Of a stretch of 47,051 bases of DNA, positions 5,474-37,006 are shown in pieces. The notes under the pieces were generated by a model. It saw only the letters and a program-made list of their open reading frames with translations, did no database searches and was not told the origin of the DNA. The first letter of the stretch is position 1; each line of letters starts with the position of its first letter. The translations under genes were made by a program, and so were the position numbers. The stretch is from the IMG/VR virus record IMGVR_UViG_3300047159_000049. One strand, given 5' to 3'. The DNA is from a virus. Lineage: Duplodnaviria; Heunggongvirae; Uroviricota; Caudoviricetes.

Positions 5474-6247
5474 ATGTCGGATGATTTAACAGTCAGCCAG
5501 GAAAACTCCATAGCGAACACGTCCTTCAATCAAAGAAGGACGTCTTTGGAAGACCTGTCGAGCCGAATCATATCAAACGCCAACATTCAAGAAGACTACT
5601 TCCCGGCTAGCGTGATAATGTATAAGCGGCGCTGCGAGATCGCCTACCTTCTGAAGAATCCGCTTAAAGCCACCCAGACGAAGCCGGTGCTGCTTATCCT
5701 CAGCAGATCGAAGATGGGCTGGAACGGGCGAGAGCTATCCAAGACGGCCGGAATAAAGGCCGCCGCCGATATGCCTGCCAAAATCAGCATCTCGGAAGTC
5801 TCAATCAACAAATCGAAATTATACGAATCCTATCGCGTTGAAAAATACTATGGCGCGATCATCAAAAACAACAGCCATTATGGAATGATCATAAATTATA
5901 CGGATACCTTGATATCCTGCAAATTCGCACTAGGCGGAAGCCTGGCGTCGAAAATAAAAATATTTTACGACCCGAACGGCGAGCGCCCCGATGGCTATAT
6001 GAGCGAATGCGACACGGCGATATCCGAAAGCGGATCGACCATACTTTACGAGTTCAACATCTTCGTCTATGACGACTGCGAATACAGAGGCAGCCAACGA
6101 TCCAGAGCTAACACGCCGGATAATCAGAAATGGCATAAGCTCGTCAAAGCGAAGCTGATCAACATCTCCAAGCATAGAATAGTCAGCGCGCTCTGCGACG
6201 CTATGCCTGAATGCGCAAGCAGCATCAAATTAGACGCAATGGTCTAA
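5474..6247 (+). CDS. Hypothetical protein, C-terminal tag family (SSIKLDAMV)
   Basis: 257-aa ORF in the operon; ends in the shared C-terminal motif. Confidence 0.8.
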   Translation: MSDDLTVSQENSIANTSFNQRRTSLEDLSSRIISNANIQEDYFPASVIMYKRRCEIAYLLKNPLKATQTKPVLLILSRSKMGWNGRELSKTAGIKAAADMPAKISISEVSINKSKLYESYRVEKYYGAIIKNNSHYGMIINYTDTLISCKFALGGSLASKIKIFYDPNGERPDGYMSECDTAISESGSTILYEFNIFVYDDCEYRGSQRSRANTPDNQKWHKLVKAKLINISKHRIVSALCDAMPECASSIKLDAMV

Positions 6248-6269
6248 AATGCACCAAGGAGGCATGTAT

Positions 6270-6524
6270 ATGAATACGACGCTAAAGTCAATCATCATCA
6301 CGTTTCTTCCTGACGACGACCAAGCCAAGCCCGAGATCAAGAAGAACATCCCAAACGATCTCGTCAGCAAAATCACGGAGCCGTCTGATGGCAAGATCGA
6401 GCTATCGGTAGAAGACGCCAATTTCGCAAAAGTTGCCAATTCCGTCAAGCAGATCAGACGGGCTAGTTGCTGCGCGATCGTCCCTGGGGTCGGAGTCGTC
6501 AAGATCTCCGATAGATCGCTATGA
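6270..6524 (+). CDS. Hypothetical protein
   Basis: AGGAGG RBS at 6257-6262 favours ATG 6270 (or 6264) over 6249; ATGA overlap with the next gene. Confidence 0.7.
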   Translation: MNTTLKSIIITFLPDDDQAKPEIKKNIPNDLVSKITEPSDGKIELSVEDANFAKVANSVKQIRRASCCAIVPGVGVVKISDRSL

Positions 6525-7201
6525 CTTCGAAAGATATCAAAAGCGACGGGACCGAAGGCTCAAGCGACATCAGCGGAAAGACGTATCAGCTCATCGCGTC
6601 CATGGATGCCCGCAGAGGCGAAACGAAAAACAAAAACGTCGATCTGCGCAAATACGGGGTGTCTGGAAAGATGTACGTCGAGGCAAGCACCAACAAGATA
6701 ATCGGGTTCACGAGATCCGGCTTCCGAGAGCATGCCTTCTTTCAGTATTTCTCGGCAAGAGAGATGCATCAGCTATGGGAAAGCAAACCCGTTTACCTCG
6801 ATGATCTCGGATGCTGCGTAAACGGCATGCTGAGAAACAACATATCCGTGGTCATCCGCGTTAGCTACTATAACGAAGAATACTACGCCAGAGTCGAGTT
6901 CGTCGTATGCGCAGATTCAAGCAATCCTGGGATAATCTTGCTTCCGCCAAGCGACAAATATCAGGATATCGAAAACAGCACAATCATATATATCGGAGAC
7001 GTCAACAAAGACAAGGATCTGGACATCACGTTCCGCAGCAAAAAGCCTGAAAAAGGCGCTCTGATGAACGCCATCAAAAAGGCATCAGATCTCATCATCA
7101 AAAACGCCTCAGGAGACGGATTCGATCCATCCAGATTCGATTGCGACGACGTCAAGATAAAAGCGTTCATCGACTCCGCCATCGTCCAAGCGTCTATCTA
7201 A
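6521..7201 (+). CDS. Hypothetical protein, C-terminal tag family (DSAIVQASI)
   Basis: 226-aa ORF followed by a terminator. Confidence 0.8.
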   Translation: MTSKDIKSDGTEGSSDISGKTYQLIASMDARRGETKNKNVDLRKYGVSGKMYVEASTNKIIGFTRSGFREHAFFQYFSAREMHQLWESKPVYLDDLGCCVNGMLRNNISVVIRVSYYNEEYYARVEFVVCADSSNPGIILLPPSDKYQDIENSTIIYIGDVNKDKDLDITFRSKKPEKGALMNAIKKASDLIIKNASGDGFDPSRFDCDDVKIKAFIDSAIVQASI

Positions 7202-7202
7202 A

Positions 7203-7232
7203 AGAAACCGCCGATCCGGTTTCTTTTTTTTG
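7203..7232 (+). terminator. Rho-independent terminator
   Basis: AAGAAACCG-CCGATC-CGGTTTCTT stem followed by a T-tract. Confidence 0.85.
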
Positions 7233-7258
7233 CCAACTCGTATGCGGAAAAGGCCCTC

Positions 7259-7272
7259 GAACAATTGATTAT
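7259..7272 (+). promoter_or_regulatory. Putative phage late promoter GAACAATTGATTAT
   Basis: Recurrent motif 24 nt upstream of ATG 7296. Confidence 0.7.
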
Positions 7273-7295
7273 GCAAAATTCAAGAGGCATGATCG

Positions 7296-8489
7296 ATGGC
7301 TTCCGACAATATTAGTACCTCAGACCTATTCGTAAACACCAATTCGGATCCATCGGGCTTCAGAGAGCTGTCCAGATTCAATGGCTATTTCGACAACCGA
7401 TACGTCGATGACCATCCAGGCGGAAGCGCGTTCATATTCGTGACCAAGCCGATGCTGTTCATTCTGCCAACGAAGCCGTCGGCCGCCGATTCCAGGAAAG
7501 ACTATCTCGCATACGGAAACATGACGAAGGATCCTAAATTCGCGCAGTTCCTGGTAAAAGAATCAGGCGGAAACGATGAGGACGGATACATCGCCAAGAT
7601 GCTCTCATACAAAGAATACACCGACGTTCAGTCCCTGTTCCTTCCGATCTTCACCAACCGCACGATAACGTTCGATTCCCAGGATGTCTCTCTCGACACC
7701 GAAGACGCGTTCAACACAAAAGAAGGATACCGAATCCCGATGCCTGGAACCAAAACCCAATCGGAAGCCGCTGGGAACATCGCCATCGGCATGCTGCCCG
7801 ACACCCTCAATCTCGATATGATAAAGATAATGACGCTATGGGTAAATTACATATCATACATATCAAACGGCACCTTCGACGCCAACCCCGATATGGTGCG
7901 CAACTGCCAGCTTGATTACATGTCATCGATATACTATTTCGTTCTGAATCCGGATGGAAAGACGTTGAAATACTGGTGCAAATACACCGGATGCTACCCG
8001 ACGTCGATCCCTTATTCGGCGCTGTCGTATTCAAGAGGGGACGGCTCGCCTCAGAACATAACCGTCCAGATGGCTTACACCGTCAAAGAGGATCTCAGCC
8101 CGCGCATACTCGAAGACTTCAACAAAGTTTCCCTGAGAGTCGCCGATTGCTGGGACGACTCGTCGAGCGCCGCATCGGAAGACGACAGCGGAAGCGGCGA
8201 ATACATCGCCGGATCGACAAGCCCGCTTCTGTCTGAGAAAGCCCTCTCGCAAAACAGCGGATTGATGGCAGTCATCAACTCAGCCAAACGAGATCCTATC
8301 GTGTTCAGGGTTCCAAAAAAGAACGCGTCGGACGTCAAATCGTCTAACAGCGACGCGATCCCTGCGCATTTCGAGCTTTCGTTCGGCAGATCGACGATGG
8401 CGTCATCCGTGATCAAGAGCGTCACCGGAAACAACACGGACGGCCTGATAGATTACGATTCGTTCTGGAAGAGCCCGTTGGAGTCGTGA
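7296..8489 (+). CDS. Putative tail-tube-fold/baseplate virion protein
   Basis: AFIFVTKP and LDYMSSIYYFVLNPDGKTLKYWCKYTGCYPTSIPY resemble T4 gp19/gp48/gp54-like tube-fold proteins of jumbo myophages. Directly upstream of the baseplate wedge gene. Confidence 0.6.
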   Translation: MASDNISTSDLFVNTNSDPSGFRELSRFNGYFDNRYVDDHPGGSAFIFVTKPMLFILPTKPSAADSRKDYLAYGNMTKDPKFAQFLVKESGGNDEDGYIAKMLSYKEYTDVQSLFLPIFTNRTITFDSQDVSLDTEDAFNTKEGYRIPMPGTKTQSEAAGNIAIGMLPDTLNLDMIKIMTLWVNYISYISNGTFDANPDMVRNCQLDYMSSIYYFVLNPDGKTLKYWCKYTGCYPTSIPYSALSYSRGDGSPQNITVQMAYTVKEDLSPRILEDFNKVSLRVADCWDDSSSAASEDDSGSGEYIAGSTSPLLSEKALSQNSGLMAVINSAKRDPIVFRVPKKNASDVKSSNSDAIPAHFELSFGRSTMASSVIKSVTGNNTDGLIDYDSFWKSPLES

Positions 8490-8533
8490 CCGCCTTCGGA
8501 AAATAAAAATAAATCCTGCGAGGACATAATCTT

Positions 8534-11449: not shown

Positions 11450-11468
11450 TGCTGCAAAATCGAGTGAC

Positions 11469-11482
11469 GAACAATATATTAT
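11469..11482 (+). promoter_or_regulatory. Putative phage late promoter GAACAATATATTAT
   Basis: Recurrent motif; implies the next gene starts at 11521 (GGAGG at 11508-11512), not 11446. Confidence 0.6.
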
Positions 11483-11520
11483 CGAAATTCGCAAGACATT
11501 CGACATCGGAGGCATCACAG

Positions 11521-21048: not shown

Positions 21049-21057
21049 ATATATCAT
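21049..21057 (+). promoter_or_regulatory. Putative phage early promoter ATATATCAT
   Basis: Intergenic, directly after a terminator. Confidence 0.6.
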
Positions 21058-21811: not shown

Positions 21812-21823
21812 AAAGGATTCATC

Positions 21824-22426
21824 ATGCCAAAGAAGAAACCGATGTTCGCATTCACCAACTCAACCATAGCCAATACCATCAGAAGCACTACGACCGACAT
21901 GGCCACCGAAACAGAGTATCTCAAGAACACCACTGACGATCTGTCGAAATCAAAAAAGCTTTACGCCTCGCTGATGAGGAACCTTGGCCAGGAATTCGAC
22001 ATCATCGCCGTGACCATGGCCATAGCGTTCTGCAATCCCAATTCCAATTATTCCAAAGACACCCCGTCCGACCAATGCTCAAACGTCATCAACATGGCAG
22101 AGCTATGCGCCAAAGTGGCCAGAGACAAGCTAGGAGACGGAGCGATCGACAGCGCACTTAGATTCAGCTCAAGGCGCAAGAACAATGACTTCAAAGCCGT
22201 CCAAGCTTACACGATGCTTCACTCGATGTGCAATCTGGTGAACGACCCAAGCTTCGATCTTGGAGGCCAGCATACCGGAATAAGTGTCCTGCTGAAATCG
22301 ATCGTCCCGAACGGAGTCGTCCTCAAGATGGCAAAAACGGCGGAGTTCAAGAAGACCGCCGAAGACCTGGCCGACAAAGTGCTTAGCCTAAGCGAAGACG
22401 AGCTGAGGCTTGATCTAAAGATCTGA
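21824..22426 (+). CDS. Hypothetical protein, C-terminal tag family (DELRLDLKI)
   Basis: 200-aa ORF with an AAAGGA RBS. Confidence 0.8.
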   Translation: MPKKKPMFAFTNSTIANTIRSTTTDMATETEYLKNTTDDLSKSKKLYASLMRNLGQEFDIIAVTMAIAFCNPNSNYSKDTPSDQCSNVINMAELCAKVARDKLGDGAIDSALRFSSRRKNNDFKAVQAYTMLHSMCNLVNDPSFDLGGQHTGISVLLKSIVPNGVVLKMAKTAEFKKTAEDLADKVLSLSEDELRLDLKI

Positions 22427-22438
22427 AAGGACATTATT

Positions 22439-23029
22439 ATGGATAATCAAACCAATACGACAAATCAAGATGACAAATCCATCACTCTTACGGTTAAAAT
22501 ACAGATCCCATGCCGCCAAGACAGCATCATAGCATTCGCATGCCAAGGGCATAGCCGAGGAAAATGGTATATCGAATGCCTTTACTACGATCCTAACGCG
22601 CCCAAAGACAAAATCGGCGTCTGCAGCTTCTGCGTTTCCGACGATACCGGCGACGCATTCTATCAATACGTCAAATCAAGCGGAGGCTTCTCGCTTCTGT
22701 CAAGCACCAAGAAAGAAAGCCTATCCCAAAGCTTCTCGGCGTTATGCATCGGAAAATACACCGAGTCTGGCGCCCGCGTCATCGTCACAAAAGGATTCGA
22801 CAAATACCGTTGGAAGCATGACAGCACGTCATCCTCTACCACAACAACGCATACGCACAACATCTTCATATACAACGACACCGATGCTGAAAACTATAAC
22901 AGCCGCATCTGCATAGCCAGGGGAATCACCGCCAAAGGCCCTCGCTTCAGGCAAATTCTCAGCCTGCTCAAGAAAAGCGGACTGCCTGACGCTGAGCTCG
23001 ATTCGATTAAGATCAATCTGATGCTTTGA
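22439..23029 (+). CDS. Hypothetical protein, C-terminal tag family (DSIKINLML)
   Basis: 196-aa ORF with an AAAGGA RBS. Confidence 0.8.
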   Translation: MDNQTNTTNQDDKSITLTVKIQIPCRQDSIIAFACQGHSRGKWYIECLYYDPNAPKDKIGVCSFCVSDDTGDAFYQYVKSSGGFSLLSSTKKESLSQSFSALCIGKYTESGARVIVTKGFDKYRWKHDSTSSSTTTTHTHNIFIYNDTDAENYNSRICIARGITAKGPRFRQILSLLKKSGLPDAELDSIKINLML

Positions 23030-23097: not shown

Positions 23098-23751
23098 GTG
23101 GAAACAATAATTATTTTATCCGAAAGCAGCTACAACGTAGGCTATGTGTTCCTCGGGCCATCCATAGCGTGCATTTTGTTCTGGGTCGTAAAGCTGATAA
23201 TCGGAGGATTCGACATCAACAGACGCGACCGAGAATTTTATGGCGAGTCGCGCAACAAATATTCGAGATCCGCCAATAAAGTAGCTGACGCGATCATGCC
23301 GGTCAAGGCATCCAAGACTATCAACGTCTCCAGCAAAGGAATCAATTACTCCATTGAAATAGGAGACAAGGAAGGAGCCATGCGAAATCAGATCTGCTAT
23401 CGCATAGCATACGGATTCCTAAGGCCGTCTCCGCAGGCCTGGAAGGTGCGCAGACTATCGACGCCGAAAGACAATCAGCTAGCCGCCACCGACGAAGCCC
23501 TCAGAATAGCATACCAAGAGCTTGGTCCTAAAAAGATGCGAAAGCTATGGCTGTACGTCAATTCTAAAGACGTCACATCATGCCCTAAAACTCTCGAATC
23601 TATTAAGCAGCTCGTCGAGTTTGTTTACACCGAGATAAGGGAAGGCGGATACATCGTCGAACTGTCAGACCATCAAAACGATATGCGTGCTGCCCTGAGA
23701 AGCATAGAAGCCTCGGACGAAGACGAGATTGCCCTAGACATGATACTCTGA
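23098..23751 (+). CDS. Hypothetical protein with one N-terminal TM segment, C-terminal tag family (DEIALDMIL)
   Basis: Hydrophobic VGYVFLGPSIACILFWVVKLIIGGF near the N-terminus. Confidence 0.7.
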   Translation: METIIILSESSYNVGYVFLGPSIACILFWVVKLIIGGFDINRRDREFYGESRNKYSRSANKVADAIMPVKASKTINVSSKGINYSIEIGDKEGAMRNQICYRIAYGFLRPSPQAWKVRRLSTPKDNQLAATDEALRIAYQELGPKKMRKLWLYVNSKDVTSCPKTLESIKQLVEFVYTEIREGGYIVELSDHQNDMRAALRSIEASDEDEIALDMIL

Positions 23752-25449: not shown

Positions 25450-25707
25450 ATGGACACGATGATAATGCACGATTATGAGAAAATCAAATCGTCCGGTGAC
25501 TTCGATTTATACGTGGATCATCCGATCTACCAGATAGTTTCCGCAGGGGACGGATATCACATCATAGACGCCGCCACCAAAGAGACGGTAGGCACGAAAG
25601 CGTTTCTTAGAATCCTGTCATTCGACGAAGACGGATATCCATTGAAAACTAAGGTCTACGATGATCTATCGAAATACTCAATAGTCAAAGACGAGGATAC
25701 CAAATAA
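25450..25707 (+). CDS. Small hypothetical protein
   Basis: 85-aa ORF with a GGA RBS; TAATG overlap with the next gene. Confidence 0.65.
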   Translation: MDTMIMHDYEKIKSSGDFDLYVDHPIYQIVSAGDGYHIIDAATKETVGTKAFLRILSFDEDGYPLKTKVYDDLSKYSIVKDEDTK

Positions 25708-26489
25708 TGGACAGCATCATTTCAGAGGCGATGAGCAACAACCTGTTTGACGTCGTGACCAAAGGGCATGACATCCTTGCCATGTATGTCGGAGGATCCC
25801 GCCTGATCGGGTCTGACCAAGACGACAGCGATTATGACCTCATCGTTCTCACGAAGTACGAATCGATCCGCCCAAGGGAATTCTTAATGTACAAAGGAAC
25901 CTCGCGGATAGAATGGTACTACAAAGACATCATGGACATGTGCTATCCATACGAAAACGTCAACAGCAACAAAGAATACATGTTCTGCCTTCAAGGGGTT
26001 CAGATAAAGCAGCTTTCATACGACGGACTTGTCTATGTTCAATCAGGATGCGAGGATTACGTCAAAGCCATCCTCAGCCTGAAAGACGACATATCAAAAA
26101 TCGCATGCTATACCCTGGCTGACTATTTCAGCAAACAAATCAACGAGATGGTATCCACCAGAAAGCTCGTCATTGAGCCAAGGCCGTATTATTTCTATTA
26201 CAAATACATCTACCACTTGGCGTACATCTCATACATCCTTAAAGGCGAAGCCGTCGATTTCAATCTCATAAAGTCCCTTAAGCGGGTATGCTCCGATTCC
26301 CCGGACATCTCCGATTCGGCCGTATCAGGAATAATCGATCGCATGGCGATACTCAAAGAATACGTCGAAGCGAATCCGATCGACATCCCATCGGAGGAAA
26401 CGAAACTGTGCGACAAGATGTCGGCAGCCCTTCCGTTCTGGGCTCCGGTCACCATCGATGAGCTCGCATCAGCTTCCGATGCCCAGTAG
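25707..26489 (+). CDS. Pol-beta-superfamily nucleotidyltransferase domain protein
   Basis: hG[GS]-x-DxD signature: MYVGGSRLIGSDQDDSDYDLIV. Confidence 0.75.
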   Translation: MDSIISEAMSNNLFDVVTKGHDILAMYVGGSRLIGSDQDDSDYDLIVLTKYESIRPREFLMYKGTSRIEWYYKDIMDMCYPYENVNSNKEYMFCLQGVQIKQLSYDGLVYVQSGCEDYVKAILSLKDDISKIACYTLADYFSKQINEMVSTRKLVIEPRPYYFYYKYIYHLAYISYILKGEAVDFNLIKSLKRVCSDSPDISDSAVSGIIDRMAILKEYVEANPIDIPSEETKLCDKMSAALPFWAPVTIDELASASDAQ

Positions 26490-26507: not shown

Positions 26508-26516
26508 ATATATAAT
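26508..26516 (+). promoter_or_regulatory. Putative phage early promoter ATATATAAT
   Basis: Intergenic; followed by the leader hairpin GCATCCG-TTTGC-CGGATGC (26534-26552). Confidence 0.6.
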
Positions 26517-26600: not shown

Positions 26601-27131
26601 GTGAGAGTCGCACTTAACAAAGACGGAGGCGCCGCCAAGAACTTCCTCGGAAGAAGCAAGGACTGCCATTACGGAAACGCCATCGCCATCAGGCTGATAA
26701 CCCAGAACAAGATACCGAAGAGCATCGTCTACATCAGGACTAAGAAAGGCCGGATATACGCTTACGTCGATGACATTCACAACCATATGCGAAAGCTCAT
26801 CGAATCTACCGGCCAGATGTCTTTGATCGTCGACGGCAAAGACAACGTCCTATTCGTCGACAAACAAGTCATCAGAATGGATCCTGAATACTACGTCGGG
26901 AAGTACAATCCATACGATGAGCCGTGGGCCAACATATTCTCATGGTATGACCATTACGTCCCAAAATACTGCATCACGGTGACTCCGGTAAAATCGAATC
27001 CCGAAAAGCAGTACGTCATCTTCGACACTCTTATTCAATCAGAGATCAAGACTGCCATCGAAGCGCTGATCAGGCCAACACGCCCTGAATTAGCCGACGA
27101 GCTCGATTTAGAGATCGCCCTCCGCATCTGA
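26601..27131 (+). CDS. Hypothetical protein, C-terminal tag family (LDLEIALRI)
   Basis: GTG start with an AAAGGGGG RBS. Confidence 0.75.
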   Translation: MRVALNKDGGAAKNFLGRSKDCHYGNAIAIRLITQNKIPKSIVYIRTKKGRIYAYVDDIHNHMRKLIESTGQMSLIVDGKDNVLFVDKQVIRMDPEYYVGKYNPYDEPWANIFSWYDHYVPKYCITVTPVKSNPEKQYVIFDTLIQSEIKTAIEALIRPTRPELADELDLEIALRI

Positions 27132-27147
27132 AAGAAAGAAGGATTTT

Positions 27148-28095
27148 ATGTCCAAAGACGAAAACAAGAAAGCCAATTCGTACGACGATTGGAACATCCC
27201 AGTCGCTTTCATCTGCAACAAAAGCAGCAACGTCATCGGCTATATGGCCATGAACGGGAAGAATTCCATCGTGTCTTCTACGCGCATCAACAGAGACGAC
27301 AGCTATTACTACAACGGAAGCACCGTTCAAACAATGGCCATCAAGAACGGATTCCCGACCGATCCCGTCACCACGCTGATGATGAGCGTCGAATCCTTAT
27401 GGACCGGAAAAAGATATTACGGATGCAACATGAACGATCTGATCAAGATCGTCTATGGCAGCAACCTCCTTTACATCCCGAAGCAGAACATCTCGCTATT
27501 CGCCAAGGCCGCCAACGTCAAGGTGATTCTCAAGACGAGCTCGTCTTACAAGTTCTACCATAACGGAAACAACGCGCCATACACCAATAAGCCTGAGAAC
27601 CCGATCGAATTGTGCGAATGCTTCGGAAAGATCAGAAACGAGTTTATCAAAAACAGAGCTGCGTCAGATCATCAAACCGAGCCGACGTACGCCGAGGTCA
27701 TCGCCTGGGCCAAAGAGTATTATCATTACGTCGAGACCATGCAGTATCCGGTCATCACGGCCGTTTACTCCGTTCTCTATCGCTTCAACGACGATTCCTC
27801 GAGCAACAATAAGAAAGGCTCGCTTTACATCCCGATCTTCGAAGGAGCCCAAATCAGCGTCGTGACCGACAAAAACTCGACGAACGAAGACGTCTATAAG
27901 AAGCTCAGAGCCGCCATCACCGACAAGACGAAGATCGAAAAGGCCATCATCGAAAACAATAGCCTAGCCACCATCATCAGAGACAAATCGCTCGCGACTT
28001 ACCAAAGCACCGATGATCTGGCATCGATGATCGGATGCGAATTCGATTCCGTCTACTGCAACGATCAGCTTCTCGGCAAGAAGGGAAGATACTGA
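27148..28095 (+). CDS. Hypothetical protein
   Basis: 315-aa ORF with an AGAAGGA RBS; no tag. Confidence 0.8.
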   Translation: MSKDENKKANSYDDWNIPVAFICNKSSNVIGYMAMNGKNSIVSSTRINRDDSYYYNGSTVQTMAIKNGFPTDPVTTLMMSVESLWTGKRYYGCNMNDLIKIVYGSNLLYIPKQNISLFAKAANVKVILKTSSSYKFYHNGNNAPYTNKPENPIELCECFGKIRNEFIKNRAASDHQTEPTYAEVIAWAKEYYHYVETMQYPVITAVYSVLYRFNDDSSSNNKKGSLYIPIFEGAQISVVTDKNSTNEDVYKKLRAAITDKTKIEKAIIENNSLATIIRDKSLATYQSTDDLASMIGCEFDSVYCNDQLLGKKGRY

Positions 28096-28125
28096 TCCGT
28101 TAGTTACAACTGCTAGCCGATAGCA

Positions 28126-28169
28126 TTCCCGGACAGGACCAACCCCTGCCCGGGATTTTATTTTTATTT
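28126..28169 (+). terminator. Rho-independent terminator
   Basis: TCCCGG-ACAGG...CCTG-C-CCGGGA stem with a long T-rich tail. Confidence 0.75.
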
Positions 28170-28191
28170 CCCGGAAAGGAGGAGCCAATTA

Positions 28192-28740
28192 ATGCTAATT
28201 AAAATGGACGTTCTGAAAGGATTGGACGAAGGAGATAGATCTACGCACGTCGTCACGATCACTCTTGACGACGTCAAAAGAGCATTGGCCAAAGGGCATG
28301 CCTTCGAATTGACGATAGACCGGCATCAATCCAAGAAAAGAGGCAATTTCTTAGGCATGCAATTCGCGGACACGACCTACGACATATTCGATCCAAATCC
28401 CGAAAGCGAAACGTGCCGACGCATCGTCGCATTCGCCAAGAAGAAGATGCTGACCGTATTCAGCGGAAAGACAAACGATCCTTCGAGCTCAAGCCGTGAC
28501 AGACTTTACGTTTTCGCTACTCCGGAAATGGTCAAGCGCATAATCGTGATGCCTTCTTATATGTGCTGTCATAACGAATATCCTCTGGCATTCAGAATCG
28601 AAGACAACGTATCAGCATCCATATTTCCTGTGGCAAGCAAAGGAAACAACAAGATAGACGACTTGAGAATAGCCATAGACGACATCAGAAAAATAGATTC
28701 CGCATTAGCGGAGTCTATCTCAGTCGAGCTTAAGATCTAA
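28192..28740 (+). CDS. Hypothetical protein, C-terminal tag family (ESISVELKI)
   Basis: AGGAGG RBS; its 3' end is tandemly duplicated. Confidence 0.8.
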   Translation: MLIKMDVLKGLDEGDRSTHVVTITLDDVKRALAKGHAFELTIDRHQSKKRGNFLGMQFADTTYDIFDPNPESETCRRIVAFAKKKMLTVFSGKTNDPSSSSRDRLYVFATPEMVKRIIVMPSYMCCHNEYPLAFRIEDNVSASIFPVASKGNNKIDDLRIAIDDIRKIDSALAESISVELKI

Positions 28741-28788
28741 AAGATTCCGCATTAGCGGAGTCTATCTCAGTCGAGCTTAAGATCTAAA
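28695..28788 (+). repeat. Perfect 47-bp tandem duplication (2 copies)
   Basis: AGATTCCGCATTAGCGGAGTCTATCTCAGTCGAGCTTAAGATCTAAA at 28695-28741 and 28742-28788. Confidence 0.95.
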
Positions 28789-28819: not shown

Positions 28820-28900
28820 TGTGATGTATATCAACGCGCTAGCCGAAGAGCTTTTTATAGTTGTTGAATTAGCGGAATTTGTATAGTGAATTACCGCCGC

Positions 28901-30148
28901 TTAATCGCTGATGCGATTTGAAGCGGCGGCTTCCTGATTCAACGGGGCGCCGGCGTGCGCTGATACGGATACCAGCGGCACGTCATTATCCTCTCCACAG
29001 GCTTTGATTCGGGCGATTCCCGCCCTATTGTCTTTCAAAATCCTTATTCCCTCATCACGGATGTTCAATGCCGCATTTAGATCGCGATCATTGTGGCACC
29101 CGCACGCCGGGCATATCCAATCGCGGACGGAAAGATCTTTGGTTATCGGATCTTTCTTCCCGCAATTATGGCATATCTGAGACGACGCGAAAAAGCGTCC
29201 TACCTTGACGAACGCCTTTCCGCGATCCGCCAATTTGTATTCCAGCATCGATCTGAACATGCCGAATCCGTTGTCCATCGTTGCTTTTCCAAGCTTGAGA
29301 GATCTGGATATCGAGCGCATGTCGATATCCTCTACGGCGACTATATCGTATTCTTCGGAGATCTCTTTGGATTTCTTTTCTAAGAAATCCTTTCGGCATG
29401 CCGCAACTTTGGATGCCGCTCTTGCGAATTTTACGCGCGCTTTCTCATGGTTCTTTGACCCAGGCTTTGTCCTGGAAAGACGCTTTTGTTTTTGTTTAAG
29501 CAGATACTGAGCCCTTCGAAAATAATGCGGCATCCCTGAAAGCTCGCCGTCTGAAGATACAAATAAGCCATCGGACTTGTAATCGAGCCCAACCGCATTA
29601 GATTCGTCCAACAAGACATCCGGGACGATTTTGTCGAATTTGCACGACAACGATACGTAAAATCTTTCGTCGCATTCCATCGAAATGCAAACAGACGTGA
29701 TCCTGCATCCGATAGGGACGCCGCGGTGATACACCCATTTTACCGGGCCTATCTTAGGGATATTGATATGCTTTCCATCACTGGAGATTCTTATGTTTCC
29801 ATTATTGCATATAGTCATCGTTTGGCGATCTCTTCTTGACAGAAATCTCGGCTTGCCGGAATGCATAGGACCTTTATATCTTTTTACGGCCGATCCAATA
29901 TGCCTCAGCGCTTGCTGCAGCGACGTCGATTCGGCGTCTTTTAGGAACGATAACTCCGATTTAAGGTTTTTAAGATTTCTCGATTCTGAGCAATAATCAT
30001 ACGAATATCCCGCCGTATCTATTGCAGCGCGTACGCGTTCTATGGACTTGTTAGCAACGAATCGAATGTCCCCGAACATCCGTGTCATTAGGATCTTCTG
30101 CTGTTTGCTCGGATAAATCCGATATTTATAATACCGGTTAACGATCAT
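28901..30148 (-). CDS. tnpB: RNA-guided endonuclease TnpB
   Basis: N-terminal YKYRIYP HTH; RuvC D (VGLDY), E (VAVED) and D (NDRDLNAALNI); zinc finger CHNC...CPAC. Confidence 0.95.
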   Translation of the reverse strand: MIVNRYYKYRIYPSKQQKILMTRMFGDIRFVANKSIERVRAAIDTAGYSYDYCSESRNLKNLKSELSFLKDAESTSLQQALRHIGSAVKRYKGPMHSGKPRFLSRRDRQTMTICNNGNIRISSDGKHINIPKIGPVKWVYHRGVPIGCRITSVCISMECDERFYVSLSCKFDKIVPDVLLDESNAVGLDYKSDGLFVSSDGELSGMPHYFRRAQYLLKQKQKRLSRTKPGSKNHEKARVKFARAASKVAACRKDFLEKKSKEISEEYDIVAVEDIDMRSISRSLKLGKATMDNGFGMFRSMLEYKLADRGKAFVKVGRFFASSQICHNCGKKDPITKDLSVRDWICPACGCHNDRDLNAALNIRDEGIRILKDNRAGIARIKACGEDNDVPLVSVSAHAGAPLNQEAAASNRISD

Positions 30149-30603
30149 TCCTCAAATACCCTATTAGCTTTTATTCCATGCTTAGCAAAACTATGGTCGT
30201 TATCCCCTTGGCTTTCGATGTAGTTCTTTATAACGTCTATCGTGGCTCCTCCCGTTGTCAGTAGGCAGTAGCTTTTGCTCCAAAACGCAGACTTCCATAG
30301 TATGGATTTTATCTCGGGATATTTCTCTTTTATAAGACGGCTTGACGCAGCTTTGTATGAATTTATAAATTTGGACAGAGTCGTCTTAGGCTGAGCCGTA
30401 AACATGACATGAATATGATCTACGTCATGGTTCCATTCTGCTATCTTTATTCCGTATTCCTTGCCTATTCTTTCGAATATTTCTTTGGCGTAATCAGATC
30501 TTTCGTCATTGAAAGCCTTTTTCCTATACTTAACTACCATCACCAGATGGTAATACATAAGAAATACTGAATGATTGTTCGAATCCAATTCTATAGTGTT
30601 CAT
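30145..30603 (-). CDS. tnpA: Y1 HUH transposase TnpA
   Basis: YHLVMVVKYRKK, HuH motif DHIHV, FWSKSY, and catalytic Tyr in VIKNYIESQ. Start 30603 preferred over 30624; ATGA overlap with tnpB. Confidence 0.95.
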   Translation of the reverse strand: MNTIELDSNNHSVFLMYYHLVMVVKYRKKAFNDERSDYAKEIFERIGKEYGIKIAEWNHDVDHIHVMFTAQPKTTLSKFINSYKAASSRLIKEKYPEIKSILWKSAFWSKSYCLLTTGGATIDVIKNYIESQGDNDHSFAKHGIKANRVFEE

Positions 30604-30715
30604 AATATATTGTTGCTTAAACACATATCTAACGTTTAGTTGCGCCGCGATTCATCTCGCCGCCTAGAATCTCCAGATTCTTGAGGCGGGAGTATTCTCG
30701 CTGGTTTTAGATAAA

Positions 30716-30746
30716 AAATAAAAAACCCTGGGGTGCCCAGGGCTTA
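30716..30746 (-). terminator. Rho-independent terminator of the minus-strand operon
   Basis: CCCTGGG-GTG-CCCAGGG stem with a T-tract on the minus strand. Confidence 0.8.
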
Positions 30747-31535
30747 TCAGATATTCAAATCAAGTATCAGAGACTGCTTGCGGTCTTCAGGTATCCACCC
30801 CGTGCTTCCAGTTGAGGCCTCGATCGCTTCGTTTGCGGAATCGAACGTGAATGCCAAGTCCCACGATCTCAGATAATTTCCTTCTGACAATAATTGGTCT
30901 ATGTCATCAAGACTGTCATAGACGTATTTGTTCACGACGGAGCCTATGCTGGCCGCTTTGAACACTCCGTAATACACCGAATATCCGCCGCCTGACCTGA
31001 TCATCACGATCGACGAATCGTCTCCGAATCCGTCTTTAGACATGATTGCCATGCGTATTCTGCCAAAGCGCTCTTGCTTTACCACGAATCTCCCGTCTCC
31101 GAAAGCGGAAGCCATCCTCAGTATCTTTCTCCGAGAATCATAGTCGTTGTCGCACACGACGTCTAGGCTTATAGTGTCAAGCGGCTCGGCCGTAGGATCG
31201 CAGTCCTTCCTCAGCGCCGCTATCGTGACGCTTATAGTCCTGTTTTTGGCTTTCCCTTCGTCATCTTCCACGAAATTCTCGCTTAGCGTAGCTAATCTGA
31301 AAGAGCCATTTCTGACGTACTTATTGATGTATCTGATGGCAGTTCCGAATTTGCATTCGGCTATATACTCGCTCGTACGGATGCCTCCACTCGTACGGAT
31401 GGCGCCATGAAGGGACATCTTAGGCCATAGCCTCCTGATAACCGGAGCCGCCAAAGACGATATCGACGGTATTAAGTTTGTCGGCGCTGCCTGTATGGAA
31501 ATATTGCTGATAGATTTGTTTTTGCCCATTTTCAC
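30747..31535 (-). CDS. Hypothetical protein, C-terminal tag family (QSLILDLNI)
   Basis: 262-aa ORF with a 4-nt overlap with the upstream gene. Confidence 0.75.
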   Translation of the reverse strand: MKMGKNKSISNISIQAAPTNLIPSISSLAAPVIRRLWPKMSLHGAIRTSGGIRTSEYIAECKFGTAIRYINKYVRNGSFRLATLSENFVEDDEGKAKNRTISVTIAALRKDCDPTAEPLDTISLDVVCDNDYDSRRKILRMASAFGDGRFVVKQERFGRIRMAIMSKDGFGDDSSIVMIRSGGGYSVYYGVFKAASIGSVVNKYVYDSLDDIDQLLSEGNYLRSWDLAFTFDSANEAIEASTGSTGWIPEDRKQSLILDLNI

Positions 31536-32257
31536 AGCTCCCGATCCAGCGCAATCGAATCCGATATGGCCTGCCTTTGGTCGCTCGACTCGGAATTGAC
31601 GATCATCTGAGCAAATGAGTCTTTGTACGACAGCAGTATCACGGTAACGCTTCCTCCTATGGACTCCGGGTCTATCCCAAGGAAGAATTTGCTTATCTGC
31701 GTCGCATACGACTCGAATTCCTTGACGAATTTCTTTCCTGAAAGCTCGCCAAGGATCCGCTCATACGCCCCATACACGCCAAAAGCATTAATCATCGTGT
31801 ATATGGCATCGGATGCGATGCACTGCGAAAGCTCATCGAGGAATCCAGACGGAGAAGTCCCAGGGGCAAGCGATTTTTGGCTTGGGTCGTAATCAACGGG
31901 TATTCGCATGGAAATGGGGTTATTCCCTATGCCGGAAAATGTACGATCCTCGATTCCGAATGTGATTGCGATCTGAAGGCACGTCACAGCGGCGTCCCTG
32001 AGCATCTTCTTGATGGCCGAATACGAGATGGCCGCCAATACCGCGTTGGTTCTCGACCTATGCTCAAAGCTCTCAGACAGCGAGGTGTTCAGATTGGCCT
32101 CGAACTCGTCATAGGCCGCCTTTGAATACCCGGAAGACGCCCCGAAAGCGCGGTCAGAGATATCCTCAGATATCTTATCGATGGCTTCGGCGTTAGCGAT
32201 GCGGTCGATTCCGCTGGCGAATATATCGCGTATGTCTTTGTAGCTGCTGTTTTTCAC
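31532..32257 (-). CDS. Hypothetical protein, C-terminal tag family (DSIALDREL)
   Basis: GTG start 6 nt after a sigma-A -10 element. Confidence 0.75.
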   Translation of the reverse strand: MKNSSYKDIRDIFASGIDRIANAEAIDKISEDISDRAFGASSGYSKAAYDEFEANLNTSLSESFEHRSRTNAVLAAISYSAIKKMLRDAAVTCLQIAITFGIEDRTFSGIGNNPISMRIPVDYDPSQKSLAPGTSPSGFLDELSQCIASDAIYTMINAFGVYGAYERILGELSGKKFVKEFESYATQISKFFLGIDPESIGGSVTVILLSYKDSFAQMIVNSESSDQRQAISDSIALDREL

Positions 32258-32263
32258 GCCTTG

Positions 32264-32292
32264 ATTTTAAGCCGCAAAACCGCGGCAGTCAA
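32264..32292 (-). promoter_or_regulatory. Sigma-A-type promoter TTGACT-N17-TAAAAT; leaderless transcript predicted
   Basis: Spacing counted; the spacer is itself palindromic (GCCGC-N6-GCGGC). Confidence 0.65.
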
Positions 32293-32328
32293 CAGAAACA
32301 GGTTTCTGACAGAAAGCCACTCTCACAG

Positions 32329-32337
32329 ATATATCAT
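32329..32337 (+). promoter_or_regulatory. Putative phage early promoter ATATATCAT
   Basis: Heads a 7-gene operon; followed by the hairpin GATGGC-N7-GCCATC (32352-32370). Confidence 0.6.
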
Positions 32338-32407
32338 TTTCACGAGATAGGGATGGCATTAGACGCCATCTAGGGATTTAAAAAATAATTCCCTAAGGAC
32401 ACAAATT

Positions 32408-33103
32408 ATGTCAGCACTTCCAGATACCTACAAAGGATGGAAAGCATTCTTCGACAACTTAGACTCATTCTGCGCAAATCATCGAATCCGCACTTGCGGG
32501 CCGCTGGCTTCGACTAGCCTTGGAAAGCCTCTCCTAAAAGGGATTTCCTCAGTTGCGTTTGTCCGCATAGTTCCGCAAAGCGTCGTCCATAAAACCCATG
32601 GAAAGAAGATCATCAAGTACTCGGTAGAGGATATACTGTATCTAGATTCAGAAGGAGAGCCTGGGCATCTAGGATACGCCGCCGAGACATTTGCTCCTGA
32701 AGGCGTTCCATACCTCTCGATGCTTTTCATCCCAGAATTCGACACCACCATAAGCTCAGAGTCGGCAAGGTCGCTAAAACGATATATAACCGACAACGGC
32801 TTCTTCCTATACGAAAAACATAAGCATGCCGATATAGACGAACTGCTATTCATCAATGGCAATCTTCTTGAATCAGGCCTAATCGAGCTATCAAGATTCA
32901 ATGGCATATCAAACGATACTTACTGCTGCGTCACACTCACCACATATTCGAAAGTTCCTTATGCCGCCAACAGAAACGGTACGTATTCGTATAATCTATT
33001 AACTCGCGACAATACCGCCATTGACATCGCCAAGAACATCAAAGCCGGAGTAAAAGACAAAAGCCTGGCAGATTCGATAGTCATGTCTGTTTTCATGATC
33101 TGA
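32408..33103 (+). CDS. Hypothetical protein, C-terminal tag family (DSIVMSVFMI)
   Basis: 231-aa ORF. Confidence 0.8.
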   Translation: MSALPDTYKGWKAFFDNLDSFCANHRIRTCGPLASTSLGKPLLKGISSVAFVRIVPQSVVHKTHGKKIIKYSVEDILYLDSEGEPGHLGYAAETFAPEGVPYLSMLFIPEFDTTISSESARSLKRYITDNGFFLYEKHKHADIDELLFINGNLLESGLIELSRFNGISNDTYCCVTLTTYSKVPYAANRNGTYSYNLLTRDNTAIDIAKNIKAGVKDKSLADSIVMSVFMI

Positions 33104-33114
33104 AAGGAGATCCT

Positions 33115-33783
33115 ATGTACAATAGCATCAACAGACTAATCGAGCTTCAAAACTCTAATCTCGAGTATCTTCTCCATGGAGAGCACAGGCTATCCCCATC
33201 CGATATCACCATCATCAAAGCGATGAGATACAGCGAATACCCTAATAAGATCTCAATCGTATGCGACTGCATCATCAGAGAAGGGCCAGACAAGAAACGG
33301 ATCCTTTTCTGCATCCTCGACCCAATAAAGACGACAATCAACGGGCCGTTTTACAATAAGATTATTAAAGACATCCTGAAATACGGGTTTGTCAAAGTTG
33401 CCGATCATTCGCTCTTGTTCGGAAACGACATTAAAAACGGGTGTGTCTTTCTTGGACAAAACGAAAGCAATATCCTCAACCGCGGACTATACACAACGAC
33501 TGATCTATTTGACATCTATGTCAACGTCGCTCCGTTGGCTACCGGAATCGCAAAGATCGGACTAAGCGACCCAGAAACGTACGTCTCTCACGGCGAAGGC
33601 CATCTGGACGCGTGCGTCATCAGAACAGGATGCTCAGACCCAAGCATGAAAGGCGCCACCTATGACATCGTTGAATCAAAAAGCATCGATGGCCACGACG
33701 TCATATCCAAGATCTGCGACGAAGCCGGAAAGGTTTTGTCGAAGAGCTTGGCAGACTCCATCAGAGCGAACACGCTGGTGTGA
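33115..33783 (+). CDS. Hypothetical protein, C-terminal tag family (DSIRANTLV)
   Basis: AAAGGAG RBS. Confidence 0.8.
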   Translation: MYNSINRLIELQNSNLEYLLHGEHRLSPSDITIIKAMRYSEYPNKISIVCDCIIREGPDKKRILFCILDPIKTTINGPFYNKIIKDILKYGFVKVADHSLLFGNDIKNGCVFLGQNESNILNRGLYTTTDLFDIYVNVAPLATGIAKIGLSDPETYVSHGEGHLDACVIRTGCSDPSMKGATYDIVESKSIDGHDVISKICDEAGKVLSKSLADSIRANTLV

Positions 33784-33795
33784 AAGGAGATTTCC

Positions 33796-34566
33796 ATGTT
33801 CAAAAAATACAACGTAATATCAAGCCCGATATCCGCGCAGATGCGCCTATTGGCAGACGCATACGTCAGCAGCCAGAAGGAATTCGACGTGCTTCCTTCC
33901 AAAGAGCTTAAGCCAGCCTTAGGATTCGCCGAGCCTTTCATATGGCGCAAAACCAACGGAGACTCCGGCATGGCGTTCATCCTTTCGGAGTATTACGTCT
34001 TCTCCGAAGGAGGCCCTGACAGATTCATCCGATCGAAAGGCATCTGCATCCTCGATAGCTTCTCCGTCATCGGAAAGCACGCCGCCACCGAGGAAATTAA
34101 AAAAGAATTCCACGGAGACGGGCTTGAGTTCTTCATCAGGCGCAAAAGGATCTCGATCATCCCCAAAGAGGATTACTCGAACCTTGGAAGCGAATACATC
34201 ACGCGCAAGGGAAGGAGCCACGTCGTAGACGAATTGGTGTTCCTGAGCCCTGAGCAAATCAATGCCGGCCATGCCGACATCATCGAATCCGAATTCACGA
34301 ACAGCCTTCGGGTCATCCCATCAAACGCCAGCGAGACGTTCCGCGAGCAGTCGCTGTTCAACTGGTCCAATTCGTTCAACTTCGACGTCGCCATGGTCAT
34401 CCCAAACGAGGAATGCAGCGGATGCAACATCTGCAATCTCAGCACCAAAAACGACAACATGGAAGACAAGAAATACGTCGACAACGCAAAGACAATCCGC
34501 AGATCGCTGATCAGAGTATTGGGAAAACCAAAGTTCGACAGCATCTCGATGTCTTTCAAGGTTTAA
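33796..34566 (+). CDS. Hypothetical protein, C-terminal tag family (DSISMSFKV)
   Basis: AAAGGAG RBS. Confidence 0.8.
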   Translation: MFKKYNVISSPISAQMRLLADAYVSSQKEFDVLPSKELKPALGFAEPFIWRKTNGDSGMAFILSEYYVFSEGGPDRFIRSKGICILDSFSVIGKHAATEEIKKEFHGDGLEFFIRRKRISIIPKEDYSNLGSEYITRKGRSHVVDELVFLSPEQINAGHADIIESEFTNSLRVIPSNASETFREQSLFNWSNSFNFDVAMVIPNEECSGCNICNLSTKNDNMEDKKYVDNAKTIRRSLIRVLGKPKFDSISMSFKV

Positions 34567-34571
34567 TCAGC

Positions 34572-34892
34572 ATGTCACTTCTAAGAAAAGGCGATAAGAT
34601 CGAAGGATACGCCGTATCAGGAATAGACGGCTATTCCGGCCACTACACGCTGTCGTCCCCGGATGGGACGGCGGAGACGATCAGCGGATATTCCCTGACG
34701 CGGATCCTGGATGGCCAGACGACTCTCAAAGCCGTGCTGGCCAACAAGAGACGCCATAGGGGAAAGCCGATCGGATACGTTTACCGAAAGAAAAAGCTTA
34801 AGAAGCAGATCCTTGAGAACCTCAAGGACGCATATCCGACGTCGCCGTGCAAAGAAGATCTGAGCTCGCTCATAATGCAGCTCGAAATCTAA
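34572..34892 (+). CDS. Hypothetical protein, C-terminal tag family (SSLIMQLEI)
   Basis: Start moved to ATG 34572 (MSLLRKG) to avoid overlap with the upstream gene. Confidence 0.7.
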   Translation: MSLLRKGDKIEGYAVSGIDGYSGHYTLSSPDGTAETISGYSLTRILDGQTTLKAVLANKRRHRGKPIGYVYRKKKLKKQILENLKDAYPTSPCKEDLSSLIMQLEI

Positions 34893-34907
34893 AGAAAGGA
34901 GCGCCGC

Positions 34908-35501
34908 ATGGACGCAAATCTAAAAATCAGAAATCTTGTCAACAACTCAGACTTGCTCAAAAACGAAAGCACGACCGAAGACAAGATAACCAAAGCCGCC
35001 ACCAGCGGAAGATATTCCGCATGGGGCATCATCAGAATGTACAGGGGATTCGTAGACCCCGGATCGAGCAGCCCATACACCAGAGTAATCTCAAGCGTGG
35101 CGTTAATCCCGGCGTATCCTAAGAACGTCGGAGATCCCAAGATCGGAAGCAAGCGCGTCGTATGCTTCTCGCACTCAGTATCCGGATTAAGCGAAGCCGG
35201 AAGATTCATATCGGAGATCAACCGATCGAAGAACCTCAAACGCGTCATGACATTCAGAGGCGAGGACGCGCAAGTTAGAAGCCTAAGTTTCGTCTGCTTT
35301 CTCGCGTGCACCGACGCTGACATAGCCGATGGCTTGGACATCGTCAAGGAAAACAACAAAGCCGTTTTCATGCTCGGAAGCGCAGTCATGCTGCGAGTTC
35401 CGATCATCGATGCGGAGCAAGGCATCAAAAGCGTCTGCGACGCCATCGAGAAACTAAACAAGCCCAGAGCCGACAGCATACGGACGAATCTGAAAATTTA
35501 A
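34908..35501 (+). CDS. Hypothetical protein, C-terminal tag family (DSIRTNLKI)
   Basis: AAAGGAG RBS. Confidence 0.8.
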   Translation: MDANLKIRNLVNNSDLLKNESTTEDKITKAATSGRYSAWGIIRMYRGFVDPGSSSPYTRVISSVALIPAYPKNVGDPKIGSKRVVCFSHSVSGLSEAGRFISEINRSKNLKRVMTFRGEDAQVRSLSFVCFLACTDADIADGLDIVKENNKAVFMLGSAVMLRVPIIDAEQGIKSVCDAIEKLNKPRADSIRTNLKI

Positions 35502-35528
35502 AAATAATCCCATCGCGGGATAGAAAGG

Positions 35529-36356
35529 ATGGCATTTATGCTATTCAAAAGAAAAGAACGAGTTCTAGACGATCTTGAATCCGAAGTCGAAAGATGCGTC
35601 GACAAAGACATCCATCATCTCGTCGAAATCAACAACGACAGCGCGGCCTACTCCATTTTCAGCATCGTCTTCAAAGGATTGCAGCGCTCTGCGATCTACT
35701 CGTTGCCAGACAGCGTCGCCAATATGGATGTCTACGACGCGAAGCGCTATGCCGCCATGGACAGATACTTCAAGTCCGGCAAATTCAGACGCCATGCGTA
35801 TAAGATACTCTTCAAGGCCAACCGGACGCAGCACGGATGCAGCTTTCCTGACGACATCGAAAAAGCCTACGACTCAATAGAGGTCTTGAAAAAGCCCAAG
35901 TACGCCAAAGACTTCTATATGCTGTACTGCTATCGCGAGCGCGTCGAGATCGAAACGAGATTGTACAACGCGATGTGCGCGGCTCAGGCCGCGCTCCTCA
36001 TCACTTATGGATCAGCCATCGTCAGGCAATCCAAAGAAAACGGCGATCGCGCAAGCGAGGAAAGCATCGCAAACAGCGTGTCTGAGACAGCCAAGACGGC
36101 AAAAGCATTCGAAGGCGAGAAGCTGTTTTGCCAAGCAGACACCATCCTGATCTCCGACGCCGAGCTTCTGGCGTTCGTCAAAGCGACCAAGATCGCCGTC
36201 GACATCATCATCAAAGACGACCTCAAGACAAGCGGAAAGGCCGGGGTCAATAAGATCCTGGCGGCCCTCAGAGACAACATCGAAAAAGGTATCGCCGAAT
36301 CCAAAGCCGCCGTCAAAGCCAAAGCCGACTCGGCTGTCGTCGACCAATCCATATGA
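35529..36356 (+). CDS. Hypothetical protein, C-terminal tag family (DSAVVDQSI)
   Basis: AAAGGA RBS; start could be 35538. Confidence 0.8.
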   Translation: MAFMLFKRKERVLDDLESEVERCVDKDIHHLVEINNDSAAYSIFSIVFKGLQRSAIYSLPDSVANMDVYDAKRYAAMDRYFKSGKFRRHAYKILFKANRTQHGCSFPDDIEKAYDSIEVLKKPKYAKDFYMLYCYRERVEIETRLYNAMCAAQAALLITYGSAIVRQSKENGDRASEESIANSVSETAKTAKAFEGEKLFCQADTILISDAELLAFVKATKIAVDIIIKDDLKTSGKAGVNKILAALRDNIEKGIAESKAAVKAKADSAVVDQSI

Positions 36357-37006
36357 CAGCGAAGAAACCAGCCAATAGCGATTATGGGCTGTCATACGAC
36401 GCCATCAGCCAAGGAGCCAAGCGCTCAATCCAGAGCGTGATATACTCCTCGAACTTCGTCATCCTCAAAGAAGACGAAAACTCAGCCGTCAAAGTAAGGC
36501 GCGACAGAAAGACGGGCCTCGTAACGCACGTCTATCTGAAACGCCCGACGATCTGCCGGATCATCATGTTCAGCGAAGATCCGTCATCCCACAGCCGCAG
36601 AATCATCACAGCCAGCGTCAAGGCGCCTGAGATGGACGGCATCCTTGAAAGCGCTCCGCAAAGCTATGCGGTCGCATTCAATGAGAAATTCTTCACAAGC
36701 GCCGTATCCGAGCACGACAACGATTTCGACGGAGGCGTCCGCCAAGCCATCATCATCAAGAAAAGCTCGCTCAGGCATCTCGCGCTGATCGAGGGAACGG
36801 ATCTGCCGACAAATGAGATGCGGGTCATCTATGACGAAAAGATCTGCCTCTTCACCTATGGCGAATTCGGATTCTGCATCAGCAGCGTGAGAGCCGCCAA
36901 CGCGTCGTTCCTAAGAACCTTCGCGAAATACGACGACCCGATCAAAGCCGAGAAGATGCGAAGCGCCATCAGCGCAGAAGCCCTGCCGGAGGATTTTAAA
37001 ATTTAA
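36353..37006 (+). CDS. Hypothetical protein, C-terminal tag family (EALPEDFKI, divergent)
   Basis: ATGA overlap with the upstream gene; last gene of the tagged block. Confidence 0.8.
   Translation: MTAKKPANSDYGLSYDAISQGAKRSIQSVIYSSNFVILKEDENSAVKVRRDRKTGLVTHVYLKRPTICRIIMFSEDPSSHSRRIITASVKAPEMDGILESAPQSYAVAFNEKFFTSAVSEHDNDFDGGVRQAIIIKKSSLRHLALIEGTDLPTNEMRVIYDEKICLFTYGEFGFCISSVRAANASFLRTFAKYDDPIKAEKMRSAISAEALPEDFKI

Follow-up and report, generated by a model that had tools for sequence, protein, structure and literature searches.

In phage T4, a capsid-targeting sequence is carried by the internal proteins IPI-III and Alt. It is N-terminal, is cleaved by the prohead protease and marks late proteins that are packaged. 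Encapsulin and microcompartment peptides are short, C-terminal and amphipathic; a variable linker connects them with unrelated cargo, and they dock on one shell protein. In the poxvirus ankyrin/PRANC multigene families, and in the bacterial adaptor SspB with its ClpX-binding tail, a variable target-binding body is combined with a constant C-terminal docking element. Sliding-clamp-binding C-termini (the bacterial QLxLF type; T4 gp43, gp33 and gp55) dock on one ring. Here we describe a conserved C-terminal module of about 25–31 residues, whose final 9–10 residues we call the tag, in an uncultivated AR9-type jumbo (giant) phage from wastewater. The DNA analyzed is IMG/VR virus record IMGVR_UViG_3300047159_000049, whose full 47,051 nucleotides we call the window. 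At least 31 of the phage's proteins, or approximately one gene in five across the roughly 118 kilobases (kb) examined, terminate in this module.

The tail-tube protein of the window (7296–8489) is a member of Pfam family Phage_TTP_15, and by this protein the nearest cultured relatives, at 33–38% identity, are AR9, PBS1, Yersinia phage phiR1-37 and Staphylococcus jumbo phages. The phage recurs, nearly invariant in nucleotide sequence, in metagenomes of wastewater and bioreactor sludge that come from 14 or more studies; megablast of phage records gave no match to the window. Three records were central to the comparisons: G002, an IMG/VR strain record that is 99.9% identical to the window and reaches past its end; contig L022, the closest relative, with a tail-tube protein 69% identical; and G004, a complete 333-kb relative at 47% identity.

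Like the T4 capsid-targeting sequence, which is read by one partner, the module is a short terminal peptide shared by unrelated, polymorphic phage proteins. It differs in being C-terminal in all members, in its length of about 30 residues and in its association with early-type promoter motifs. The T4-type N-terminal position with a prohead-protease site was not found and, for a module known here from sequence alone, there is no evidence of cleavage or packaging. As with encapsulin and microcompartment peptides, a terminal amphipathic peptide sits on unrelated proteins, but the consensus differs and the carriers have no linked shell gene. The window proteins scanned included no member of an encapsulin or microcompartment family (the genome is incomplete), and we know of no compartment in AR9-type phages. 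Tandem expansion and quick turnover are features shared with the poxvirus ankyrin/PRANC families; however, the carriers have no sequence or fold relation to those families or to SspB, and their bodies are not repeat proteins. A hydrophobic C-terminal peptide common to several proteins is also typical of sliding-clamp binders, but here there are about 30 carriers, none of them a recognized replication or transcription protein, and D-S-I-x-L-D-L-K-I has neither the Gln nor the aromatic residue of the clamp-binding consensus (QL[SD]LF or SLDFLF-type).

A likeness within the same phage group is found in AR9 itself (NC_031039.1 24579–30840; L054), where gp030, gp031 and gp033–gp036 form a tandem row of six genes with annotated early promoters upstream. 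Their products share a C-terminal tail of about 22 residues (..F..S..RV..YEA..IL[ED].L) with a hydrophobic end, and gp033, at 56 amino acids, is scarcely more than this tail. Promoters of the early type, tandem genes and a conserved C-terminus are common to both sets, whereas the AR9 family has just six members and their bodies are clearly homologous. The AR9 tails did not match the module in reciprocal hmmsearch (best E 0.17) or hhalign (probability 0.3%). We found no published description of such a tag, in agreement with the preliminary description of this DNA, which had been made from the sequence alone.

Translation of the window confirmed the C-termini originally quoted for all 18 open reading frames (ORFs). 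Counting back from the last residue as −1, the terminal residue is I, L or V in 18/18 and position −8 is S in 13/18, as first counted. The tagged genes lie on both strands, the minus-strand pair being 30747–32257. They are listed here with their leave-one-out scores against a 9-residue matrix, where given.

5474..6247, + strand: tagged ORF, 257 amino acids, ends SSIKLDAMV; leave-one-out 11.9 bits; no Pfam or PHROG family
6521..7201, + strand: tagged ORF, 226 amino acids, ends DSAIVQASI; 10.5 bits
12942..13328, + strand: tagged ORF, 128 amino acids, ends SSIRVDDKI; 13.5 bits
21083..21811, + strand: tagged ORF, 242 amino acids, ends KSIMLQRKI; 12.9 bits
21824..22426, + strand: tagged ORF, 200 amino acids, ends DELRLDLKI; 16.2 bits
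22439..23029, + strand: tagged ORF, 196 amino acids, ends DSIKINLML; 12.8 bits; tail similar to the family A module (see below)
23098..23751, + strand: tagged ORF, 217 amino acids, ends DEIALDMIL; 4.9 bits, a moderate match
26601..27131, + strand: tagged ORF, 176 amino acids, tag DELDLEIAL followed by two extra residues (RI)
28192..28740, + strand: tagged ORF, 182 amino acids, ends ESISVELKI; 10.8 bits
30747..31535, − strand: tagged ORF, 262 amino acids, ends QSLILDLNI; 9.1 bits
31532..32257, − strand: tagged ORF, 241 amino acids, ends DSIALDREL; 11.8 bits; upstream sigma-70-like site TTGACT-17-TAAAAT
32408..33103, + strand: tagged ORF, 231 amino acids, tag DSIVMSVFM followed by one extra residue
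33115..33783, + strand: tagged ORF, 222 amino acids, ends DSIRANTLV; 4.6 bits; KSLADSI codons differ from those of the neighboring gene
33796..34566, + strand: tagged ORF, 256 amino acids, ends DSISMSFKV; 10.1 bits
34572..34892, + strand: tagged ORF, fusion allele, 106 amino acids, ends SSLIMQLEI
34908..35501, + strand: tagged ORF, 197 amino acids, ends DSIRTNLKI; 15.0 bits
35529..36356, + strand: tagged ORF, 275 amino acids, ends DSAVVDQSI; 6.0 bits
36353..37006, + strand: marginal tagged ORF, 217 amino acids, ends EALPEDFKI; 3.7 bits leave-one-out, 13 bits by tail profile

In leave-one-out scoring, 12 of the 18 tags reached at least 9 bits and 16 at least 3.7 bits; the remaining two (26601 and 32408) fit once shifted by 2 and 1 residues, respectively. 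With the full matrix, a single one of 14,412 internal 9-mers of window proteins attained 9 bits, and every other ORF C-terminus in the window scored 0.1 bit or less. A model-free check agreed: 20 pairs of C-terminal 10-mers had BLOSUM62 scores of 18 or more, versus none among internal control segments. Enrichment of the motif at C-termini, as proposed, is therefore real by both measures. The gene at 36353–37006 is a marginal member of the set. It had also been proposed, from the differing synonymous codons of KSLADSI in adjacent genes, that selection acts on the peptide, and this extends to the tags as a whole. At 817 identical-residue positions in tag pairs, the same codon was used in 37.5% of cases, versus 37.9% expected from codon usage. 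Since codon identity is what usage alone predicts, conservation acts on the peptide and does not come from recent DNA copying.

The claim that no gene to the right of 37.1 kb carries the tag is correct inside the window but fails beyond it. Direct translation of G002 revealed a second cluster of 12 further tagged genes, approximately 6.1–16.6 kb past the window end, and one more tagged copy, P0128, was found in other strains. The carriers range from 106 to 289 amino acids and are soluble proteins of no assigned function. L022 has a tandem set of three genes whose products end in ...LVVDSLI, ...LMLDIAV and ...LILDLKI, with G, A or R at −8 in place of S. The bodies of these three match nothing in the window, and they lie at a different location within an otherwise syntenic structural region; L022 also lacks the tagged genes that adjoin the tail-tube gene in the window. 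No such tag family was found when the complete G004 genome was checked directly. The presence of the tag on other bodies at another site in L022, and its absence from G004, indicate a lineage-specific system whose genes occupy variable islands. A search with a 30-position tail profile matched G002 10 times and three relatives not at all. Because this search overlooked 12 clear G002 carriers that were seen by translation, we did not rely on its negatives.

Database searches yielded nothing of help in assigning functions. Neither Pfam nor PHROGs placed a family on any carrier, no recognized virion protein bears the tag, and the protein encoded at 34908–35501 had no relative among 5.8 billion proteins. 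A family A profile run exhaustively over 1.84 billion representative proteins matched only this phage's own copies. Judged by these sequence searches, the carriers are without relatives outside this phage lineage.

The relatedness of the protein bodies is the point on which the interpretation turns. The preliminary description held that the bodies do not align, and this stands for the 18 window proteins, which gave no BLAST match to each other at E < 0.1. It does not stand for the second cluster, which contains two clear duplicated-gene families. Family A comprises seven genes of that cluster, or eight with P0128 (BLAST E down to 2e-41), and family B comprises four, one of them truncated and untagged. 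Body homology is thus evident within A and within B. The two families show no relation to each other (hhalign probability 0.2%), and approximately 20 single carriers, including all 18 of the window, could not be linked to A or B (best probability 5.9%) or to one another. The scenario that had been set against the original proposal, that the bodies are simply paralogs, consequently holds for 11 genes of the second cluster and fails across families in sequence comparison. A helix-Gly-strand motif was considered as a shared body element and was rejected, as it is not enriched in carriers (3.6 vs. 3.7 per 1000 amino acids). ESM Atlas models of two window carriers were poor, with predicted local distance difference test (pLDDT) scores of 0.30 and 0.40.

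The boundary of the module is clearest in a pair of otherwise dissimilar proteins. The 262-amino-acid product of 30747–31535 and a 271-amino-acid protein of the second cluster share 45% identity over exactly the last 31 residues (232–262; BLASTP E 4e-6) and have no similarity elsewhere. Grafting of such a segment onto a new body could be seen directly. A 465-bp deletion in the window brought an untagged gene of 75 amino acids into frame with the final ~31 codons of a tagged one. Deletion and non-deletion alleles were each found in independent public runs, and both occur within run X5. Since both alleles are circulating, module grafting happens in nature. The second cluster (G002:C1 52314–62781; L031, L032, L033) is strain-variable: G002 lacks P0128 and has a frameshift in one family A copy, and identity between one copy and its counterpart in other samples drops to 78%, versus 99.9% genome-wide. 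The bodies change fast: tandem duplication, indels and replacement of genes all contribute, together with at least one fusion. Two of these events leave local marks in the window:

28695..28788, + strand: tag-coding end of gene 28192–28740 repeated in tandem (47 bp); the second copy is out of frame
34791..34795, + strand: microhomology junction of the module-grafting 465-bp deletion

Tagged operons in both clusters are preceded by a ATATATNAT-N6-G motif. Upstream of each plus-strand tagged operon, in either cluster, lies ATATAT[N]AT followed by six bases and then G. The N6-G spacing is kept at all intergenic, correctly oriented sites of the window (4497, 14103, 20197, 21049, 26508 and 32329) and at all such reverse-strand sites of G002 (13521, 14708, 17911 and 50956). 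The early-promoter consensus of AR9 is AAATATATATTAT-N6-G, and it is from these promoters that the injected virion RNA polymerase of AR9 transcribes (PMC5312081). The motif of the window has this same layout, AT-rich ATATAT..AT, six bases and G, and looks like the early promoter of this phage by analogy. A AAAGGAGG usually follows ATATAT[N]AT-N6-G by a few bases, which would give very short mRNA leaders. The motifs that precede tagged operons in the window are as follows.

4497..4505, + strand: early-type promoter motif ATATATTAT-N6-G, preceding operon 4536–7201; AR9 early-promoter layout
21049..21057, + strand: early-type promoter motif ATATATCAT-N6-G, preceding operon 21083–23029
26508..26516, + strand: early-type promoter motif ATATATAAT-N6-G, preceding 26601–28740
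32329..32337, + strand: early-type promoter motif ATATATCAT-N6-G, preceding the seven-gene tagged operon 32408–37006

The minus-strand pair 32257–30747 has a sigma-70-like site instead. The suggestion that tagged genes stand under both phage-type and host-type promoters thus held up, with most operons of the phage type, similar to AR9 early promoters, and one sigma-70-like. Virion genes follow a GAACAATnnATTAT motif, the AR9-like AACA-N6-TA form of late promoter. Because their operons lie behind the AR9-like early-promoter motif, the carriers are probably made right after infection by an injected virion RNA polymerase. Three public runs labelled RNA-Seq contain the stretch, in each case as contigs, a form that does not reveal where transcripts start.

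The module was characterized on a set of 34 members. Its layout is a helix, a turn in which Pro or Gly is frequent, and an amphipathic end segment whose consensus is A-D-S-I-x-L-D-L-K-I; in the alignment, the helix-like stretch lies 10–20 residues ahead of the tag. Residues −32 to −10 are similar across families at a level weakly but significantly above control segments. The motif is at the exact C-terminus in 29/34 members and is followed by one or two extra residues in the other five. Conservation of the polar positions (D at −9, 24/34; S at −8, 18/34; D at −4, 19/34) equals that of the hydrophobic ones, which suggests that they form a functional surface and do not serve core packing alone. 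The module, including its polar positions, is kept by purifying selection.

The conformation of the final segment is predicted differently by sequence periodicity and by modeling. Hydrophobic residues alternate at −7, −5, −3 and −1, and over the last 11 positions the hydrophobic moment is 1.43 at 170 degrees versus 0.40 at 100 degrees. AlphaFold2, given eight sequences of family A, produced a model with pLDDT 85 and a predicted template modeling score (pTM) of 0.85. In it, an alpha/beta body ends in a helix-turn-helix (H192-207, H210-224), with the tag forming the second half of the last helix. A low-confidence AlphaFold2 model of family B has two C-terminal helices as well. The amphipathic terminal beta-strand originally proposed is therefore right as to the alternating pattern, which is real, but the models give the second helix of a helical hairpin and not a free strand. 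With strand-like periodicity in the sequence and helix in the models, the bound conformation could be either.

Structure searches with the family A model found nothing at E ≤ 0.001 in the PDB (Foldseek), template modeling (TM) scores of at most 0.29 in the AlphaFold DB, a best Z of 5.7 with VIA-align, and matches in BFVD only to small uncharacterized phage proteins. A sequence search of the PDB returned chance-level matches only, including a Z-alpha domain at E 0.7. As modeled, the family A body appears to have no convincing known fold. The homodimer prediction for family A scored 0.35 (mark 0.42).

We tentatively favor, among the explanations considered, the reading that the module is a handle for docking or assembly that stays constant while the early effectors bearing it vary. 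The docking role is one that we infer. Such a common handle would link a large number of variable early proteins, whether effectors or agents of host takeover, with one partner or among themselves, and would be comparable to the constant domain through which members of viral adaptor families dock, or to a cargo-loading peptide. It is possible, if somewhat doubtful, that the module is more specifically a portable address label of about 30 residues, a helix, a turn and a terminal segment, for a single phage or host hub. It would connect a quickly changing stock of early effectors to one machine, with new carriers arising by simple gene fusion, and jumbo phages at large would have lineage-specific versions.

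Several points weigh against a docking handle. The preliminary description supposed recognition by one partner, and no partner was found; nor could a co-conserved candidate be singled out against the 47% relative, from which most non-structural window genes are absent. The promoter class is assigned solely by analogy with AR9. Judged by sequence, ordinary gene duplication accounts for eleven carriers. The tandem arrays, with genes of similar size, are in keeping with one old and highly diverged family, and bodies without detectable sequence similarity could still have a common fold. In the compact family A model, the module is a helical hairpin that may be part of the fold and not an exposed handle.

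These points lead to a different explanation, which we regard as possible without thinking it probable: the carriers would be one old, lineage-specific superfamily of duplicated genes, with the tag as the best-conserved element, a terminal helical hairpin, of a common fold that has no separate partner. Families A (7–8 members) and B (4 members) are indeed true tandem duplicates bearing the module, AlphaFold2 places the module within a compact and confident family A model and predicts two C-terminal helices in B too, the carriers are similar in size and arranged in tandem arrays, and the six-member early duplicated-gene family of AR9 has its own conserved C-terminus. A single superfamily is harder to reconcile with the lack of any profile-level link among A, B and the approximately 20 single carriers, and with similarity that ends sharply about 31 residues from the C-terminus. 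Members of 106 and 128 amino acids exist, and the fusion allele sets the module on a 75-amino-acid body. Conservation of surface-type polar positions also argues against it, as does the lack of enrichment of the helix-Gly-strand body motif in carriers.

It is improbable that the module is a cargo-loading or addressing peptide, by which the carriers would enter a compartment built by the phage, or would enter the capsid and so reach the next cell. Such a role would suit a short terminal module shared by unrelated bodies; the carriers at 5474, 6521 and 12942 are located among virion operons; and the predicted C-terminal helix-turn-helix recalls the coat-binding domains of scaffolding proteins. 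However, the promoter motifs ahead of the carriers are early-type and not late-type, the tag is on no recognized virion protein, and an encapsulin-type consensus is absent. AR9-like phages are reported to lack chimallin (PMC13282480), which also makes import into a phage nucleus, one of the roles first suggested, unlikely for this family.

We consider it very unlikely that the module is a C-terminal degradation signal or a protease-adaptor tail (ssrA- or SspB-like) that times the removal of early proteins or delivers targets to a host protease. Its C-terminal location and hydrophobic last residue would be in keeping with such a signal, and a limited lifetime would be sensible for proteins that are probably early, but a unit of about 30 residues with a predicted folded hairpin is far longer than known C-terminal degradation signals, and extensions of 1–2 residues are tolerated. 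A strict PDZ-like beta-augmentation ligand, with a free carboxylate in fixed register, is scarcely credible: the hydrophobic alternation and a moment that peaks at strand periodicity would fit, but the idea, raised in the preliminary description, is weakened by the 5/34 members that run 1–2 residues past the tag, by the helix that AlphaFold2 gives for this segment and by conservation reaching about 30 residues upstream. No PDZ family was detected among the proteins scanned, which came from part of the phage genome.

Three other features of the region were observed. An untagged 260-amino-acid protein within the tagged cluster (25707–26489) has a weak match to a Pol-beta-type nucleotidyltransferase (PF18765, E 1.3e-4, under the curated cut-off). 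An IS200/IS605 element at 28860–30715 encodes TnpA (Y1_Tnp) and TnpB (OrfB_IS605, Cas12f1-like TNB); it is missing from three other samples and from L001, which diverges from the window exactly at 30710. In G002, an insertion at window position 38752 (L001 9087–9902) adds 816 bp with a 274-amino-acid ORF that has Cys-rich motifs; this ORF had no Pfam match, and the window does not have the insertion.

This phage is common in wastewater worldwide, and a single undescribed system takes up approximately one fifth of the genes in the examined stretch. Should the module prove to be a docking handle, a whole set of early proteins for host takeover or anti-defense would be marked by it, and the module itself would serve as a single bait for the hub through which they act, so that a large block of jumbo-phage genes without assigned function would open up to experiment. 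If it is only the core of a diverged family, the set still shows to an extreme degree how far duplicated genes can diverge inside one phage. AR9 is amenable to laboratory growth and, with its smaller analogous early family, is a possible test bed.

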